NCBI RefSeq assembly: GCF_963921235.1
Contig: NC_086097.1
Coordinates: 115,260,001-115,324,000, forward strand
Source of the DNA: Mobula hypostoma
Lineage: Eukaryota
Direction of reading: 5' to 3'
DNA: 64,000 nt
The notes beneath the pieces were generated by a model, which saw only the letters and a program-made list of their open reading frames with translations, searched no databases and was not told the DNA's origin. The position numbers and the translations under genes are program-made. The stretch's first letter is position 1, and the number at the start of each line of letters is the position of its first letter. Below, one piece after another: positions 2,025 through 36,458 of the stretch.

Positions 2025-4495
2025 ACCATAAGACATAGAAGCTGAATTAGGCCATTTGGCTCGTCATCTGCTCCACCATTTAATCATGGCTGATCCATGT
2101 TTCCACTCCTCTGCCCAAGTCCCTGGCCTTCTGCCAGTAACCTTTGATGCTGTGTCTAATCAAGAACCTGTCAAGCTCTGCCTTAAATACACTCAATGAA
2201 CTGGCCTCCACAGCTGTCTGTGGAAATAAATTCTACAAATTCACCACCCTTTGGGTAAAGAAATTTCTCCATATCTCTGTTTTAAAAGGCCACCCCCTAT
2301 ACTAAGGCTGTGCCCTCTTGTCCTAGACTCCCTCACAATAGGAAACATCTTTCTACATCTACTCTGTCCAGGCCTTTCAATATTTGAAAGGTTTCAATGA
2401 AATCCACACCCCCCATCCTTCTAAATTCCAGTGAGTACAGACCCAGAGCTATCAAACATTCCTTTCATTCCTTTCATTCCTGGAATCATCCTTGTGAATC
2501 TCCTCTTTACCCCCTCCAATGCCAGCACATCGTTTCATGGATGAGGACCCCAAAACTGTTCACAATACTCAAGGTGAGGCTTCACGAGTGCCTTATAAAG
2601 CCTCAGCTTCACATCTTTGCTCTTGTATTCTAGACCTCCTGAAATGAATGCTAACATTGCATTTACTTTTCTCACCACCAACTCTACCTACAAGTTAACC
2701 TTTAGGGATTTCTGCACAAGGACTCCCAAGTCCCTTTGCATCTCAGATTTTTGGATTTTCTCCCCATTCAGAAAATAGTCTGCATACTTATTTCTACTAC
2801 CAAAGTGCGAGACCATGCATTTTCCAACATTGTATTTCATTTGCCACTTTCTTGCCCATTCTCCTAATTTGTCTATTTTCTTTTGCAGCCTACCTGTTTC
2901 CTGAACATTAAATGCCCCCTCCACCAATCTTCGTACCATCTGCAAACCTGGCAACAAAGCCATCTGTTCTAACATCTGAATTATTGGTATACAGTATAAA
3001 AAGAAGCAGTCCCAACATTGACTCCTCAATGGAACACCACTACTCAATGGCCACCAACCAGTAAAGGATCCTTTTATTCCCACTCACTGCCTCCTACCAA
3101 TCAGCCCATACTCTAACCATGCTAGTAACTTTCCGGTAATATCATGGACTCTGAACTTGGTAAGCAGCCTCATGTGTGGTACTTTGTCAAAAGCCTTCTG
3201 AAAGCCCAAATATGCAACATCCACTGCAATCCTTTTATCTGTCCTACATGTAATCTCCTCAAAGAATTCCCATAGGTTTAACAGGCAAGAATTTCCCTTA
3301 AGGAAACCATACTGACTTTGTCCTATCTCATCCTGGTTCTCCAAATACTCCATAACCTCATCCTTGATTCCAACATCTCCCAACAACTGAGGTCAGGCTA
3401 ACTGGTCTGTAATTTCCTTTCTGCTGCCTTCCTTCTTTCTTAAAGAGCGGAGTGACATTTACAATTTTCCAGTCCTCTAGCACCATGCCAGAGTCCAATG
3501 ATTTTTGAAAGATCATTACTAATCCCTCCACAATCTCTTCTGCTACAACTTTCAGAACCCTAGGGTGCAGTTCATCTGGTCTGGGTAACATGTGTACCCG
3601 TAGGTCTTTCAGCTTTTTTGAGCTCCTTTTCTCTTGTAATAGTAACTGCACTCGCTTCTTTTTCCTCACACCCTTCAACATCTGGCACACTGCTAGTATC
3701 TTCCACAGTGAGGACTGTTGCAAAATATTCATTTAGTTCATCAGCTATCTCCTTGGCCCCATTATTATTTCTCTAGGCTTATTTTCTAGCAGAGCTAGGT
3801 ACATCCACTCTCATCTTTCTTTTATTTTTTACATACTTAAAAGCTTTTACTATCCACATTGATTATGTTTGCTAGCTTGATTTCATATTTCATCGTTTCC
3901 TTCCTAATTTTTTTTTGTTGCTCTCTATAGTTTTTTAAAAGCTTCCCAATCCTATATCTTCCCACTAATTTTTGCTTTGTTGTATGCCTTCTTTTGCTTT
4001 TACATGAGCTTTGATTTCTCTTGTCAGCCACGGTTGTACTATTTTGCCATTTTAGTAGGTCTTTGTTTTTGGAATACATCTATCCTACACCTTCTTCATT
4101 TTCCCCAGAAACTCACACCATTGCTGCTCTCAAACAAGAGAAAATCTGTAGATGCTGGAAATGCCAAAGGGTCTCGGCCAAAAATGTCAACTGTACTTTT
4201 TTCCATAGCTGCTGCCTGACCTGCTGACTTTCTTCAGGATTTTGTCTCCATTGCTGCTCTGCTGTCATCCCTGCCAGAAACTTCTTCCATTTACTTTGGC
4301 CAAGTCCTCTCACATACTACTGTGATTTCCTTTACTCCACTGAAATACTGCTAATCAGCCTTTACTCTCTCCCTATCAAATTTCAAGTTGAACTTAATCA
4401 TATTATGATTACTGTCTCCTAAGAGTTCTTTTACCCTAAACTCCCTAATCCCCTCCGGTTCTTTGCACAAAACCTAATCCAGTATAGCAGATCCC
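2025..4495 (-). mobile_element. CR1 LINE 'A', 3' segment (decayed ORF2 RT and 3' UTR)
   Basis: ORF fragments GNYRPVSLTSVVG, FQKAFDKVPH, KWQMKYNVGKC. CR1-type 3' tail near 2025. Many frameshifts. Confidence 0.92.
4131..4247. mobile_element. Tiny Penelope-like terminal fragment (inverted piece plus direct piece) inserted in CR1 A
   Basis: 13-bp direct repeat ccattgctgctct at 4118-4130 and 4248-4260. The insert matches PLE ends elsewhere in the window. Confidence 0.8.
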
Positions 4496-6405
4496 GCAGA
4501 GGAGGACAAAGGGCTTAATTAGGAAAGGGAAAAAAGATTATGAGAGAAATCTGGCAGGGAACATAAAAACTGACTATAAAAGCTTTTATAGATATGTGAA
4601 AAGAAAAAGATTGGTTAAGACAAATGTAGGTCCCTTGCAGTCAGAAACAGGTGAATTGATCGTGGGGAACAAGGACGTGGCTGACCAATTGAATAACTAC
4701 TTTGGTTCTGTCTTCACTAAGGAGGACGTAAATAATCTTCCGGAAATAGTAGGGGACCGAGGGTCTAGTGAGATGGAGGAATGGAGGGAAGTGGTAAATT
4801 GAAGGGATTGAAGGCAGTTAAATCCCCAGGGCCAGATGGTCTGCATCCCAGAGTGCTTAAGGAAGTAGCCCAAGAAATAGTGGATGCATTAGTGATAATT
4901 TTTCAAAACTCTTTAGATTCTGGATTAGTTCCTGAGAATTGGAGGGTGGCTAATGTAACCCTGCTTTTTAAAAAAGGAGGGAGAGAGAAACTGGGGAATT
5001 ATAGACCGGTAAGCCTGACATCGATGGTGGGGAAAATGCTAGAGTCAGTTATCAAAGATGTGATAACAGCACATTTGGAAAGCGGTGAAATCATCGGACA
5101 AAGTCAGCATGGATTTGTGAAAGGAAAATTATGTCTGACGAATCTTATAGAATTTTTTGAGGATGTAACGAGTAGAGTGGACAGGGGAGAACCAGTGGAT
5201 GTGGTATATTTGGATTTTCAAAAGGCTTTTGACAAGGTCCCACACAGGAGATTAGTGTGCAAACTTAAAGCACACGTTATTGGGGATATGGTATTGATGT
5301 GGATAGAGAATTGGTTGACAGACAAGAAGCAAAGAGTGGGAATAAACGGGACCTTTTCAGAATGGCAGGCAGTGACTAGTGGGGTACTGCAAGGATCAGT
5401 GCTGGGACCCCAGTTGTTTACAATATATATTAATGACTTAGACGAGGGAATGAAATGCAGCATCTCCAAGTTTGCAGATGACACGAAGCTAGGCGGCAGT
5501 GTTAGCTGTGAGGAGGATGCTAAGAGGATGCAGGGTGACTTGGATATGTTAGGTAAGTGGGCAGATCATGGCAGATGCAATTTAATGTGGATAAATGTGA
5601 GGTTATCCACTTTGGTGGCAAGAACAGGAAAACAGATTATTATCTGGATGGTGGCCGATTAGGAAAAGGGGAGGTGCAACGAGACCTGGGTGTCATTGTA
5701 CACCAGTCATTGAAAGTTGGCATGCAGGTACAGCAGGCGGTGAAAAAGGCGAATGGTATGCTGGCACTTTATAGCAAGAGGATTCGGGTACAGGAGCAGG
5801 GAGGTACTACTGTGGTTGTACAAGGCCTTGGCGAGACCACACCTGGAGTATTGTGTACAGGTTTTGTCCCCTAATCTGAGGAAAGACATTCTTGCCATTG
5901 AGGGGGTACAAAGAAGGTTCACCAGATTGATTCCTGGGATGACAGGACTTTCATATGATGAAAGACTGGATCGACTAGGCTTATACTCTCTGGAATTTAG
6001 AAGATTGAGGGGGTATGTGATTGAAACGTATAAAATTCTAAAGGGATTGAACAGGCTAGATGCAGGAAGGTTGTTCCCGATGTTGGGGAAGTCCAGAACA
6101 AGGGGTCACAGTCTGAGGATAAAGGGGAAGCCTTTTAGGACCGAGATGAGGAAAAACAACTTCACACAGAGAGTGATGAATCTGTGGAATTCTCTGCCAC
6201 AGGTTACTGCTGAGGCCAGTTCATTGGCTATATTTAAGAGGGAGTTAGATAAAGCACTTGTGGCTCAAGGGATCGGGGGTGTGGAGAGAAGGCAGGTACA
6301 GGGTTCTGAGTTGGATGATCAGCCATGATCGTAATGAATAGCAGTGCAGGCTCGAAGGGCTGAAAGGCCTATTCCTGCACCTATTTTCTATGTTTCTATT
6401 TTTCT
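4496..6405 (+). mobile_element. 5'-truncated CR1 LINE 'B' inserted in CR1 A
   Basis: ORF 4781-5662 RT (YLDFQKAFDKVPH, QGSVLGP, KFADD) and C-terminus 5753-6328. (ttctatgt)n tail. atccc duplicated at 4491-4495 and 6406-6410. Confidence 0.95.
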
Positions 6406-6665: not shown

Positions 6666-8081
6666 GTCCCAGTACAATCCCTTGTTGAAGAGGTCAAGGT
6701 AGCCAAGGTAAGATCATTCTTGATGCTTCGAGACTCAAAAGATCCTGTCATCAAGAACACCCAGCCGGACATGAGATCAGGCAGGAAGTGGTCAGCCCAT
6801 GTAGGAGTTGATGAGGCAGAGTCTGGATTGAAGCACAAGGAAACGGTTGGGGCTATCCAGCTAGGCTGTCAGGTACTTGGATGGACAACCCACAATTAGT
6901 GGTCATCTTCTACAGGTAAGGAGCGCCATGAGCTTGTAACACAAGAGATCCGAGAGGTAGAAGAAGAGAAGAGGTTAGCTAAAATAGCTGGCCTGTCCAA
7001 ACAAGGGGCTTGGACCTGGTGGGAAAATGTTGAACAACGACATCTAACTTGGAATGTTCTGTGGCAGAAGGAACCGCTCTGCATTTCTTTTCTATGCAGA
7101 GCAGCGTACGATCTGCTCCCAACACCTGCCAACCTCAGCAGCTGGTGTGAAGATAAGACAGACAGGTGTGCTGTTTGTGGTGAGAAAGGAACATTTCAAC
7201 ATATTTTGAGTGCATGCAGAGTCAATCTTTCCAGCGGCATGTACACTTGGAGACATAACAACGTTCTCAAAGTTGTAACAGAAGCGGTTGAGCAGAGAGT
7301 ACTGCAGCACAACTTATCTCATGCCCCATGCTGCACAGAATATCGTATATCATTTGTGAAAGAAGGCTCCAAGTCAAGGGTGTGCAGCACAGGTTCACGA
7401 TCAAGCATACTTTCTTCAGCCAATGATTAGTGTATCAAGGCCGATCTGGATGGGAAAGGCAGTTTCCCGGAGCAAATAGCTTTCACCACATTACGTCCAG
7501 ATATAATCGTATGGTCTGACACCAGTAGAGAAGTGGTTATTGGTGAACTTACAGTTCCCTGGGAAGACAACATCGATGAAGCCCATGAGCGCAAGTTAAC
7601 CAAGTATGCAGAATTAAGATCAGAGTGCAGAGACAGAAGGTGGAAGTTCTCATGCTATCCATTCAAAGTAGGCTGCCGTGGGTTTATTGCGTTCACTTTC
7701 CAGAAGTGGCTGCGTGACATTGGTTTCACTAGAAGAGAGATCAAGTCAACCAGCAGGACTGTAGCTGAGGCAGCAGAGAAAGGATCAGCATGGGTGTGGA
7801 CCAAGTATGTCCAGAGGGGCAGATAGTCAGACAGTGTACACATATCTTGCAAACCCTTCAGTAGTGGCATAGACACCTGCAGAGCAGACTATCTGTTGGA
7901 TGGAAGTGACCAATAACTCTGATGGAGGCAGATGCCAAGTTTTTAAGCTCACCAATTGGAGGTGGTGCTTTAGCACTGCTGGCCCACCACCTTGAGGGAG
8001 TCTTGATCATAAGCGGGCCGAAACTCCTGAAGACAAGTGGCAGATCAACTGATGATCCTACTGGTGATAGCACAGAACAGT
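6666..8081 (+). mobile_element. 5'-truncated HERO-type non-LTR retrotransposon (restriction-like endonuclease); last ~29 nt displaced to 11378-11406
   Basis: One frame 6660-7826 with two TAG stops (6897, 7428): GRKWSA, QGAWTWW, YDLLPTPANL, CCHC knuckle CAVC..HILSAC, RHN, RPDIIVWS..ELTVPWE..K..KY, VGCRGF, AEKGSAWVW. Candidate TSD ttaact at 6660-6665 and 11407-11412. Confidence 0.85.
7996..8061 (+). ncRNA. Candidate non-circularly permuted hammerhead ribozyme in HERO 3' UTR
   Basis: gggagt-C-ttgatc ... GAAA-ctcct ... gatcaa-CTGATGA. Stem III ggagt/actcc and stem I ttgatc/gatcaa pair perfectly; stem II is imperfect. Confidence 0.65.
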
Positions 8082-11000
8082 TAAGACCATAAGACCATAA
8101 GACAAAGGAGCAGAAGTAGGCCATTCGGCCCATCGAGTCTGCTCCGCCATTTTATCATGAGCTGATCCATTTTATCCTATTTAGTCCCACTGCCCCGCCT
8201 TCTCACCATAACCTTTGATGCCCTGGCTACTCAGATACCTATCGATCTCTGCCCTAAATATGCCCAATGACTTGGCCTCTACTGCTGCCCATGGCAACAA
8301 ATTCCATTGGTTCACCACCCTCTGACTAAAAAAATTTCTTTGCATTTCTGTTCTGAAAGGGCGCCCTTCAATCCTGAAGTCATGCCCTCTCGTACTAGAC
8401 TCCCCTATCATGGGAAACAACTTTGCCACATCTACTCTGTCCATGCCTTTTAACATTCAAAGTGTTTCTATGAGGTCTCCCCTCATTCTTCTAAACTCCA
8501 AGGAATACAGTCCAAGAGCGGACAAACGTTCCTCATATGTTAACCCTCTTATTCCTGGAATCATTCTCGTGAATCTTCTCTGTACCCTCTCCAACATCAG
8601 CACATCCTTTCTTAAATAAGGAGACCAAAACTGCCCACAGTACTCTAAGTGAGGTCTCACCAGCGCCTTATAGAGCCTCAACATCACATCCCTGCTCCTA
8701 TACTCTATTCCTCTAGAAATGAATGCCAACATTGCATTCGCCTTCTTCACTACTGACTGAACCTGGAGGTTAACTTTAAGGGAATCCTGTACGAGGACTC
8801 CCTAGTCCCGTTGCATCTCAGAACTTTGAATTCTTTCCCCATTTAAATAATAGTCTGCCTGTTTATTTTTTCTGCCAAAGTGCATAACCATACACTTTCC
8901 AACATTGTACTTCATTTGCCACTTCTCTGCCCATTCTTCCAATCTATCCAAGTCTCTCTGCAGACTCTCCGTTTCCTCAGCACTACCGACCCTCCACCTA
9001 TCTTCGTATCGTCAGCAAACTTAGCCACAAAGCCATTTATTCCATAATCCAGATCGTTGATGTACAATGTAAAAAGAAGCGGCCCCAACACTGATCCCTG
9101 TGGAACACCACTGGTAACCGGCAGCCAATCAGAATAGGATCCCTTTATTCCCTCTCTCTGTTTCCTGCCAATCAGCCAATGCTCTATCCACGTATGTAAC
9201 TTTCCCGTAATTCTATGGGCTCTTATCTTGTTAAGTAGCCTCATGTGTAGCACCTTGTCAAAGGCCTTCTGAAAATCCAAATATACAACATCCACTGCAT
9301 CTCCCTTGTCTAGCCTACCGGTAATTTCCTCAAAAAATTGTAATAGGTTTGTCAGGCAGGATTTTCCTTTAAGGAATCCATGCTGAGTTCTGCCTATCTT
9401 GTCATATGCCTCCAGGTACTCTGTAACCTCATCCTTGACAATGGACTCCAACAACTTCCCAACCACCGACGTCAAGCTAACAGGTCTATAATTTCCTTTT
9501 TGCTTCCTTGCCCCCTTCTTAAATAGCGGAGTGACATTTGCAATCTTCCAGTCTTCCGGAACCATGCCAGAATCTATCGACTTTTGAAAGATCATCGCTA
9601 CTGCCTCCGCAATCTCCACAGCTACTTCCTTCAGAACACGAAGGTGCATTCCATCTGGTCCGGCAGATTTATCTACCTTTAGACTTTTCAGCTTCCTGAG
9701 TACTTTCTCTGTCGTAATTGTGACTGCGCACACTTCTCTTCCCTGCCACCCTTGGGTGTCCGGTATCCTGCTGTCTTCCTCAGTGAAGACTGATGCAAAA
9801 TACTTGTTCAGTTCCTCTGCCATCTCCTCATCTCCCATTACAATTTCTCCAGCATCATTTTCTATCGGTCCTATATCTATTCTCACCTGTCTTTTACTCT
9901 TTATATACTTGAAAAAGTTTTTAGTATCCTCTTTGATATTATTTGCTAGTTTCCTTTCATAGTTAATCTTTTCTCTCTTAATGACCTTCTTGGTTTCCTT
10001 TTGTAACGTTTTAAAAACTTCCCAATCCTCTGTCTTCCCACTAATTTTTGCTTCCTTGTATGCCCTCTCCCTAGCTTTAACTTTGGCTTTGACTTCTCTT
10101 GTCAACCATGGTTGCATCCTTTTTCCACTCGAAAATTTCTTCTTTTTTGGAATATACCTGTCTTGCACATTCCTCATTTTTCACATAAACTCCAGCCACT
10201 GCTGCTCTGCCGTCTTTACCGCCAGTGTCTCTTTCCAGTCAACTTTGGCCAGTTCCTCTCTCATGCCACTGTAATTTCCTTTACTCCACTGAAACACGGA
10301 CACATCAGATTTCGGCTTCTCTTTTTCTAATTTCACAGTGAACTCAATCATGTTATGATCATTGCCTCCTAAGGGTTCCTTCACCTCAATCTCTCCAATC
10401 ACCTCCGGTTCATTACACAATACCCAATCCAGTACAGCCGATCCCCTAGTGGGCTCGACAACAAGCTGTTCTAAAAAGCCATCTCGCAGACATTCTACAA
10501 ATTCTCTCTCTTGAGATCCAGTGCCGATCTGATTTTTCCAATCTACTTGCATGTTAAAATCCCCCACAATTATCATAACACTGCCCTTTTGACAAGCCTT
10601 TTCTATTTCCAGTTGTAATTTGTAGTCCACATCCCTGCAGCTGTTTGGAGGCCTATAAATAACTGCCATCAGGGTCTTTTTACCCCTGCTATTCCTTAGC
10701 TCAACCCATAAAGATTCTGTACCTTCCGATCCTATATCACCTCTTTCTAATGATTTAATATCATTTCTTACCAATAAAGCCACGTCTCCCCCTCTGCCTA
10801 CCTTCCTATCCTTCCGATACACCGTGTATCCTTGGACGTTCAGCTCCCAGAGACATGCATCCTTTAGCCAGGTCTCAGTGATGGCCACAATATCATACCT
10901 GCCAATCTGTAGCTGTACAACAAGATCATCCACCTTATTCCTTATGCTGCGTGCATTTAAGTACAACACCTTAAGACCAGTATTTGATACTTTTTGCTTT

Positions 11001-36240: not shown

Positions 36241-36458
36241 TGTACATACATCTATTGATGCTTCTGGACACATCTTCAGTGATGTTCCTGGAATCACTGG
36301 GTGTTTCGGGTCTTTCAACATCATACACCCTCCTCCAGGTGACCCAGCCGGGGCTGATCAGACCCCAGATTGTGTCCAGATGGCTAGCTACTTATGACTC
36401 CATGGCTCCCCTCTTTTGAGCCACAGCCATCTTGAGGCCCTCTCTGCCACATCGGTGG
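36241..36458 (-). mobile_element. 3' end of a second HERO-type family
   Basis: Minus strand encodes TTDVAERASRWLWLKRGEPWSHK*, which parallels AEAAEKGSAWVWTK of the 6666 element, followed by a 3' UTR. Confidence 0.75.
36266..36330 (-). ncRNA. Candidate non-circularly permuted hammerhead ribozyme (second HERO family)
   Basis: gggtgt-A-tgatgtt gaaa gaccc-GAAA-caccc [12 nt] aacatca-CTGAAGA-tgtgtc. Confidence 0.7.

Follow-up and report, generated by a model that had tools for sequence, protein, structure and literature searches.

The roles of the hammerhead core residues are established, as is the rule that position 17, the cleavage-site base, may be any base but G (H17). The only study of noncircular permutations of this core, Eckert et al. 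2023 (PMC10085705), describes in its accessible text a type termed SGC, which has helices I, II, and III plus a further helix joining the free sides of I and II, which links stem I to stem II by about three nucleotides (nt; "typically three"), and which cleaves in vitro, with rescue mutants in support. The same text takes the CUGAnGA block of the core to be uninterruptible. Here, we examine a stretch of 64,000 nt from the genome of Mobula hypostoma (NCBI RefSeq assembly GCF_963921235.1, contig NC_086097.1, positions 115,260,001 to 115,324,000), called the window below and numbered from its first letter, in which the 3' untranslated region (UTR) of a retrotransposon without long terminal repeats (non-LTR), plausibly HERO-like, contains a hammerhead core in the S-G-C order with a different wiring. 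The core sits in a conserved domain of six covarying helices and approximately 120 nt that carries the full set of hammerhead core letters. We consider it fairly probable, judging from sequence and predicted fold, that this rewired domain of HERO-like 3' UTRs cleaves itself after position 17.

A first-pass annotation of the window had pointed to three blocks at positions 7996 to 8061, and we confirm this observation. The blocks read GGGAGU-C(8002)-UUGAUC, GCGGGCC-GAAA-CUCCU (8013-8028), and GAUCAA-CUGAUGA-UCCUAC (8043-8061), and they lie 170 to 235 nt past the stop codon (7824-7826) of a broken open reading frame (ORF). Stem I (8003-8008 with 8043-8048) and stem III (7996-8001 with 8023-8028) pair in the hammerhead register, and the view that this noncircular order needs pseudoknots is upheld. 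The annotation had also mentioned that rearranged hammerheads are in print, correctly so, since its Z-Y-X order is the published type SGC (Eckert et al. 2023, PMC10085705, in the accessible text); for the same reason, the block order itself is not new. The interpretation given to the blocks is supported in part. Its core letters stand, while helices IV, V, and VI had been overlooked, and the imperfect stem II that it drew (cctac/gcggg) has its letters in place without a conserved pairing. The real 5' strand of stem II lies upstream, at 7981-7985, and what follows CUGAUGA (8056-8067) belongs to helix V as its 3' strand, whose first bases had been misread as stem II.

The three blocks form part of a domain at positions 7949-8067 with the following features, where family 1 denotes the lineage of this copy:

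7949-7960, plus strand: 5' strand of helix V, the closing helix; pairs with 8056-8067.
7961-7980, plus strand: hairpin VI, between helix V and stem II; 8 base pairs (bp) and a 4-nt loop in family 1.
7981-7985, plus strand: 5' strand of stem II, with G10.1 at 7981; pairs with 8015-8019 in the hammerhead register and is not contiguous with A9.
7987-7992, plus strand: 5' strand of helix IV, which encloses stem III; pairs with 8035-8040.
7993-7995, plus strand: N-G-A; in the k-turn-like loop that separates helix IV from stem III, this is the strand without the bulge.
7996-8002, plus strand: 3' strand of stem III (7996-8001, with U16.1 at 8001) and the predicted cleavage-site base, C17 (8002).
8003-8008, plus strand: 3' strand of stem I; pairs with 8043-8048.
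8015-8023, plus strand: 3' strand of stem II (8015-8019, with C11.1 at 8019) and GAAA (8020-8023; G12, A13, A14, A15.1).
8024-8028, plus strand: 5' strand of stem III, together with A8023.
8029-8034, plus strand: strand of the k-turn-like loop that has the bulge: three bases, then G-A, then one base.
8035-8048, plus strand: 3' strand of helix IV (8035-8040), a 2-nt link, and the 5' strand of stem I (8043-8048).
8049-8055, plus strand: CUGAUGA, C3 to A9.
8056-8067, plus strand: 3' strand of helix V, beginning directly after A9.

A9 runs into helix V and hairpin VI precedes G10.1, leaving the core strand discontinuous with stem II. Because the boundaries V/VI, VI/stem II, and A9/V contain no unpaired bases, stem II, helices V and VI, and the core G-A pairs would form a gap-free four-way junction, and in this model it is that junction which interrupts the core between A9 and G10.1. 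Stems I and II and helix IV meet at the other end in a three-way junction, where helix IV ties together the far ends of I and II. As modeled, the domain is thus built of six helices and two pseudoknots. Helix V forms 12 of 12 bp in the family-1 copy L004 and 10 of 12 in the window copy, and hairpin VI is present in the minimum-free-energy fold of L004.

Two loops deserve separate mention. The k-turn consensus has a three-base bulge and then G-A on one strand, with G-A opposite, and the internal loop between stem III and helix IV shows this sequence signature, with G-A on both strands and a three-base bulge; column counts are G 44/50 and A 48/51 on the unbulged strand and G 39/44 and A 43/44 on the bulged one. 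The loop of hairpin VI contains a conserved palindromic hexamer, UGAUCA (31 to 40 of 40 to 43 sequences per column; columns 26-31 of alignment A4), which could mediate dimerization between loops or a tertiary contact. The hexamer lies at 36359-36354 on the minus strand in the window's copy of a second lineage, family 2a; it is missing from the hairpin VI loop of family 1, which has the same hexamer in stem I (8004-8009).

The elements of a hammerhead core are short, and CUGAUGA, GAAA, GUC, and two 6-bp complements could in principle come together in a repeat by chance. To put a number on this, we used a descriptor consisting of CUGANGA, GAAA, and UH (U then non-G), with stems I and III abutting the core and the blocks in any order within 120 nt. 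When at least 5 bp per stem were demanded, the window gave two matches, while 100 dinucleotide shuffles averaged 0.49 and 38 of them carried at least one match. At a threshold of at least 6 bp per stem the two window matches stood against a mean of 0.045, and none of 200 shuffles had two. One match is unconvincing, since shuffled windows often yield one at the 5-bp threshold, and the three blocks taken alone go beyond chance only weakly. We take the motif to be real because it recurs, with compensatory changes, in related elements. The decisive lead was the second match in the window (approximately 36345-36260, minus strand, S-G-C order), which lies directly past the stop codon of a related ORF tail.

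To reach distant relatives, we used a protein alignment (A2) that led to 80 metagenome loci, whose proteins are 34 to 46% identical to the family-1 C terminus, and took up to 900 nt downstream of each. With the descriptor, 53 of these 80 loci (one doubtful) showed the S-G-C order on the strand of the ORF and none showed it on the opposite strand, and all other combinations of order and strand together produced 11 matches. A covariance model, R1, built from 12 natural sequences and holding only the nested helices V, VI, IV, and III, gave 55 matches at E <= 1 in 240 kb. It matched 49 of the 80 metagenome loci, every one on the ORF strand, as well as four loci from the animal's own genome, and in the 64-kb window it found two copies only, at 7952-8068 on the plus strand (63.9 bits) and at 36260-36383 on the minus strand (130.2 bits). 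Taken together, descriptor and R1 place the domain in 60 of the 80 loci. Ten of the 80 have less than 200 nt after the ORF, and in approximately 10 that have enough sequence the domain was not found; these mostly encode the most distant proteins. Some loci matched by R1 alone have broken cores (e.g., L154, L194, and L121), as expected of decayed copies. One metagenome contig, L143, ends exactly at the predicted cleavage-site base (locus base 1279), a single case that is no evidence, and several other contigs end elsewhere within the domain.

These relatives also bear on how stem II is made. The RNA might be an ordinary hammerhead of the published type SGC, with stem II formed by the strand after CUGAUGA as the annotation had drawn it, and the block order fits this reading, with a link from stem I to stem II of 4 to 6 nt here versus the "typically three" in the accessible text of PMC10085705. 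Across 48 distinct motifs, however, pairing between the strand after A9 and the 3' strand of stem II averages only 0.25 to 1.0 bp in four registers and reaches at least 5 bp in 2 of the 48, whereas the upstream strand pairs from C11.1 over at least 5 bp in 46 (control window, 8 of 48). The strand after A9 makes helix V instead: anchored at A9, helix V has at least 9 contiguous bp in 30 of the 48 motifs and in 3 of 48 controls, its 3' strand starts at offset 0 after A9 in most motifs, and it is separated from stem II by 16 to 26 nt in most. Free duplex energies show no such excess (z-scores against shuffles average -0.27, with 1 of 48 below -2); helix V becomes clear only once anchored at A9. 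We reject stem II as first drawn, since the downstream strand barely pairs across these motifs, and regard an ordinary type-SGC hammerhead as very improbable.

We counted covariation on an alignment made with R1 and containing 51 distinct rows (21 single-linkage clusters at 70% identity, 35 at 80%), to which stems I and II were added as pseudoknots. Plain MAFFT alignments (A1, partly A3) misplaced the cleavage column and hairpin VI, and the covariance-model alignment was therefore used. Standard pairs occupy 92.2% of 2017 cells, compared with 58.7% after shuffling (none of 500 shuffles reached the observed value) and 37 to 42% when the strands were slid by 1 to 3 columns. Forty-one of 43 pairs change on both sides, and the covariation score is 0.752 versus 0.188 for shuffled and approximately 0.1 for slid controls. 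The values by helix are as follows:

Helix V: 11 of 11 modeled pairs covary; 92.3% of cells paired.
Helix VI: 8 of 8 pairs covary; 94.2% of cells paired.
Stem II: 4 of 5 pairs covary; 93.8% of cells paired.
Helix IV: 6 of 6 pairs covary; 97.6% of cells paired.
Stem III: 5 of 6 pairs covary; 98.6% of cells paired.
Stem I: 7 of 7 pairs covary; 76.9% of cells paired.

The counts for stems I and II are independent of R1, because neither stem was in the model. Stems I, II, and III abut the core in the standard hammerhead register, with covariation to support them. The covariation across families for which the annotation had proposed to look is present in all six helices, around core letters that are nearly invariant.

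Column counts for the core are C3 48/48, U4 49/49, G5 49/49, A6 48/49, G8 47/49, and A9 48/49, while N7 is free (A 14, C 4, G 2, U 29). The second block has G12 48/49, A13 49/49, A14 49/49, and A15.1 49/50, and U16.1 is found in 51 of 51 rows. As is usual for hammerheads, G10.1-C11.1 occurs in 43 of 47 and C15.2-G16.2 in 46 of 48. Position 17 is A in 20 rows, C in 16, and U in 14, and it is G in none of the 50, across the 21 clusters at 70% identity, so that the full conserved core, including a non-G position 17, is present across the alignment. With 60 of the 80 distant relatives sharing this architecture, and only on the strand of the ORF, and with six-helix covariation far above the shuffled and slid controls, an origin of the three blocks by chance is scarcely credible.

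Contigs of four runs from other organisms, aligned to the family-1 copy L004, provide a coarse view of close relatives. In runs X9 and X11 the domain stretch (L004:1627-1737) has no fixed difference and the 127 nt of UTR just upstream have approximately 7, a hint of constraint on the domain. At L004:1738, which corresponds to window position 8064, all X9 and X11 contigs carry A and not G, and this creates a second CUGAUGA within the 3' strand of helix V.

The element that carries the domain is represented in the window by these features:

6900-7826, plus strand: ORF remnant in two frames (6900-7430 and 7431-7826), stop codon at 7824-7826, with a zinc-binding motif and a C-terminal endonuclease region.
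8068-8084, plus strand: start of the 3' tail; homology to other copies stops near 8084.
36380-36263, minus strand: second whole domain, family 2a, within the R1 match at 36260-36383.

The C-terminal R-P-D ... E-L-T-V-P-W-E ... K pattern of the ORF remnant we take to be that of a restriction-enzyme-like endonuclease. A Pfam search with the equivalent ORF of copy L004 gave a weak zf-RVT match alone, just below the cut-off, while homologues of approximately 1000 to 1100 amino acids have RVT_1, zf-RVT, and then the conserved C-terminal region, in that order. The best named protein relatives, at 59 to 63% identity, come from Branchiostoma, Lytechinus, and Amphiura (amphioxus and echinoderms). HERO members in Repbase are from sea urchin, amphioxus, and pufferfish (PMC7650587, in the accessible part of that source), and the HERO clade fits because the named relatives match these organism groups. 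The host is therefore plausibly a HERO-like non-LTR retrotransposon with a C-terminal restriction-enzyme-like endonuclease, within the R2/R4/NeSL/HERO group. The link to this group of retrotransposons that the annotation had drawn holds widely, distant relatives included, while its HERO label is plausible rather than established.

The family-1 copy in the window is truncated at its 5' end, and complete copies of the family extend approximately 30 nt past the equivalent of 8084. It is 94 to 96% identical to 39 other copies among the matches listed, which are more alike mutually. Position 8059 is T where 24 of 28 copies have C, position 8036 is A where 26 of 28 have G, yielding a C-A mismatch in helix IV, and positions 7955 and 7957 are mismatched in the 5' strand of helix V. 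This copy is old, truncated at both ends, and decayed, and it is probably inactive. The minus-strand family-2a copy is the better preserved and better representative of the two. Its domain starts 7 nt past the stop codon (36390-36388) of a heavily 5'-truncated ORF tail and has the predicted cleavage base at A36324, GAAA at 36307-36304, and CUGAAGA at 36279-36273, and the copy is 97 to 99% identical to 39 other genomic places among the matches listed.

Pattern and homology searches showed that five lineages carry the domain in the Mobula hypostoma genome, listed here with first-look candidates, which are not copy numbers:

Lineage 1 (the flagged copy): 1689 first-look candidates; 582 exact 25-letter words.
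Lineage 2a: 1393 first-look candidates.
Lineage 2b: 2720 first-look candidates.
Lineage 2c: 1148 first-look candidates.
Lineage 3: 95 first-look candidates.

Families 2a to 2c jointly have 1881 exact 24-letter words. Inserted copies decay neutrally, and apparent compensation within a family can be double CpG decay, as was seen in family 2; we therefore compared lineages and not copies. Such comparison shows covariation of the strand before GAAA with an upstream strand (7981-7985 with 8015-8019 in family 1) and none with the one after CUGANGA. Within family 1, one stem III pair has changed on both sides, from A-U to G-C, in copy L035 (G000:C2:13742572-13742628), and the same pair has changed on one side only in L036; L035 is a single copy and may be due to chance. 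A pattern search of the genome for lineages whose first stem I pair is other than U-A gave two matches, both without stems. A loose pattern caught an unrelated repeat family in the same genome (L038, L042, L048, L050, L057, and L060), in which GTACAGTCGAC ... GAAACCC ... CTGAGGAT is followed by a purine-rich stretch and which has no hammerhead stems in this reading. The family-1 window copy is nested among other repeats, flanked by fragments of another long interspersed nuclear element with a reverse transcriptase at 4488-6328 (plus strand) and 8181-8456 (minus strand), presumably CR1/L2-like by its C-terminal motif.

Self-cleavage of the domain is likely. As other hammerheads do, it would cut on the 3' side of position 17, which is C8002 in family 1 and A36324 in family 2a, and generate one end with a 2',3'-cyclic phosphate and another with a 5'-OH. 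Both products would be held by stems II and III and helices IV and V (5+6+6+12 = 29 bp in family 1), and since they would stay paired, the cut would be a reversible, re-sealable nick and not a release. What this might be for is the weakest part of our explanation. We more tentatively suggest that cleavage could serve to process long or tandem co-transcripts or to switch the fate of the RNA between message and template, and we favor a double use in which the element's reverse transcriptase would recognize the same domain.

Several points weigh against self-cleavage. Both retrieval methods, descriptor and R1, favor intact cores, such that core conservation is partly built in; the nested helices were fitted to R1; and the distal stem I pairs are weak (76.9% of stem I cells paired). 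We know of no tested precedent for a break between A9 and G10.1. Placed approximately 65 to 165 nt (depending on the family) short of the 3' end, the cut would separate the coding sequence from the end at which priming occurs. In every inspected copy the sequence on either side of the cut is retained, and the copy terminates in a defined 3' tail past the domain, so the insertion template carries an uncut or re-sealed domain. No copy with homology starting at the cut was found among the 582 exact-word copies of family 1 (detection approximately 13%) or the 1881 of family 2 (detection approximately 18%), a result that is no support for cleavage and no disproof. Finally, the closure of helices III and IV in three dimensions is a geometric puzzle. 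The accessible text of Eckert et al. 2023 (PMC10085705) meets the same puzzle, the far end of the joining helix adjoining that of stem III, and the k-turn here may be part of the answer.

Some of these points would be met if the domain were a protein-binding 3' UTR structure, hammerhead-like and uncleaved in vivo, that serves as the handle of the reverse transcriptase for target-primed reverse transcription, either because it never cleaves or because it is held uncleaved in a ribonucleoprotein. We regard this as possible, if somewhat doubtful. It agrees with the domain filling most of the short 3' UTR, where that of family 2a starts 7 nt past the stop codon and ends approximately 27 nt before the element does, and with the retention of both cut sides in all inserted copies, none of which begins there; cleavage products would in any case remain paired. 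R2-group enzymes, moreover, bind a pseudoknotted 3' UTR (PMC12222951, in its accessible part). However, a binding scaffold leaves the invariant catalytic letters, the free N7, and the exclusion of G at position 17 unaccounted for, and binding and cleavage are not mutually exclusive.

A further possible use of the domain comes into view from the arrangement of its copies, which are frequently head to tail. Such pairs approximately 3.6 to 3.8 kb apart occur in families 2 and 3, and tandem copies lie on two metagenome contigs (behind L141/L128 and L188/L193), approximately 3.7 and 4.4 kb apart. Head-to-tail loci in the genome (G000) include C18:164137029 with 164140784, C78:36137963 with 36141635, C1:54852514 with 54856128 and 54860651, and C1:119849649 with 119853271. 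Two independent family-3 arrays share one direct junction of 3' end to 5' end, and the sequence directly after the 3' end in these arrays is presumably the 5' end of the next unit. The stretches retrieved from the 5' edge of two tandem arrays lacked the element start that was expected there, which weighs neither way. Tandem arrays and a shared junction together make a retrozyme-like circular-RNA cycle conceivable, and the elements would then be autonomous counterparts of retrozymes, with multimers cut to unit length, re-joined as circles, and reverse-transcribed into tandem arrays. The ends, paired through II, III, IV, and V, might be re-joined by the ribozyme itself or by a cellular ligase. 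We consider such a cycle unlikely. If it were true, the rewired core, clamped by approximately 29 bp, would be a device to cleave and religate, not to release.

Should the domain cleave, as we think likely, the hammerhead core would be seen to tolerate being broken between A9 and G10.1 and having a four-way junction there, and searches with an unbroken-block descriptor would miss a whole class. It would also be, within the literature searched, the first case of an autonomous non-LTR retrotransposon with a self-cleaving ribozyme in its 3' UTR; the ribozymes known for such elements are, to our knowledge, 5' HDV (hepatitis delta virus)-like. The domain is abundant, with at least 2463 exact core words in one genome and relatives in many marine and other metagenome contigs. 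It raises the question for target-primed reverse transcription of why a template should carry a ribozyme that would nick it at a distance of approximately 65 to 165 nt, varying with the family, from its priming end. The clamping of the domain also suggests a hammerhead prone to ligation, with a possible use in RNA engineering.

How the domain relates to what has been described can be judged from databases, from print, and from its architecture. The annotation had expected standard searches to miss the motif, and Rfam 15 indeed gave no match at E <= 10 in window 7000-9000 and none at E <= 1 in eight related loci. In full-text searches, with subscription-only papers outside their scope, neither a hammerhead within an R2-group or HERO 3' UTR nor a wiring interrupted between A9 and G10.1 came up, and the term "Type-SGC" appeared in Eckert 2023 only.

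The nearest relative is type SGC, the HRIMA-1 motif and its variants (Eckert, Friedrich, Weinberg, and Weinberg 2023, PMC10085705, here and below as far as its accessible text goes). Our domain shares with it the S-G-C order and the core letters. In both, the 3' strands of stems I and II follow each other with only a short link between, a fourth helix holds the far ends of I and II together and has one strand between the GAAA and CUGANGA blocks, and another short link runs from this helix to the far end of stem III. In type SGC, the 5' strand of stem II directly follows CUGAnGA and the partner of the fourth helix comes next (PMC10085705), whereas here both the 5' strand of stem II and the helix IV partner lie 5' of the cleavage block, and A9 enters a new closing helix V with hairpin VI, so that block C is broken. 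The backbone runs as though the two ends of a type-SGC RNA had been joined and the chain opened anew between A9 and G10.1, where V and VI were inserted. Type-SGC RNAs come from assembled metatranscriptomes (soil, spruce, and sludge), often beside hairpin ribozymes, and cleave in vitro (PMC10085705); our domain is encoded in animal DNA, in retrotransposon 3' UTRs, and its cleavage is predicted from sequence and fold.

The classical hammerheads of types I to III, including the minimal ones of Penelope-like elements and those of retrozymes, have in common with the domain their core letters, stems I to III, and the H17 rule, along with an association with retroelements and tandem copies (PMC6155905, in its accessible part). 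Unlike them, the domain follows a noncircular order, has its core broken between A9 and G10.1, and comprises six helices with two pseudoknots, and its host would be an autonomous non-LTR element with a restriction-enzyme-like endonuclease rather than a Penelope-like element or a retrozyme.

The HDV-like ribozymes of R2 and other non-LTR elements share with it an R2-group host and a proposed role in freeing the element from co-transcripts (PMC7650587, citing Ruminski et al. 2011, in the part accessible). They belong to another class, however, are located at the 5' end, and cleave upstream of their own sequence (PMC7650587), while the present domain lies in the 3' UTR and its predicted cut falls inside the element. 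The 3' UTR RNA bound by the R2 protein is likewise structured and pseudoknotted, belongs to the same superfamily, and is the likely handle of the reverse transcriptase (PMC12222951, again in its accessible part); we found no report of a hammerhead core in that RNA in the literature searched. Set against these systems, the object described here is, to judge by its sequence, a known ribozyme that is wired in a new way and carried by a new host element.

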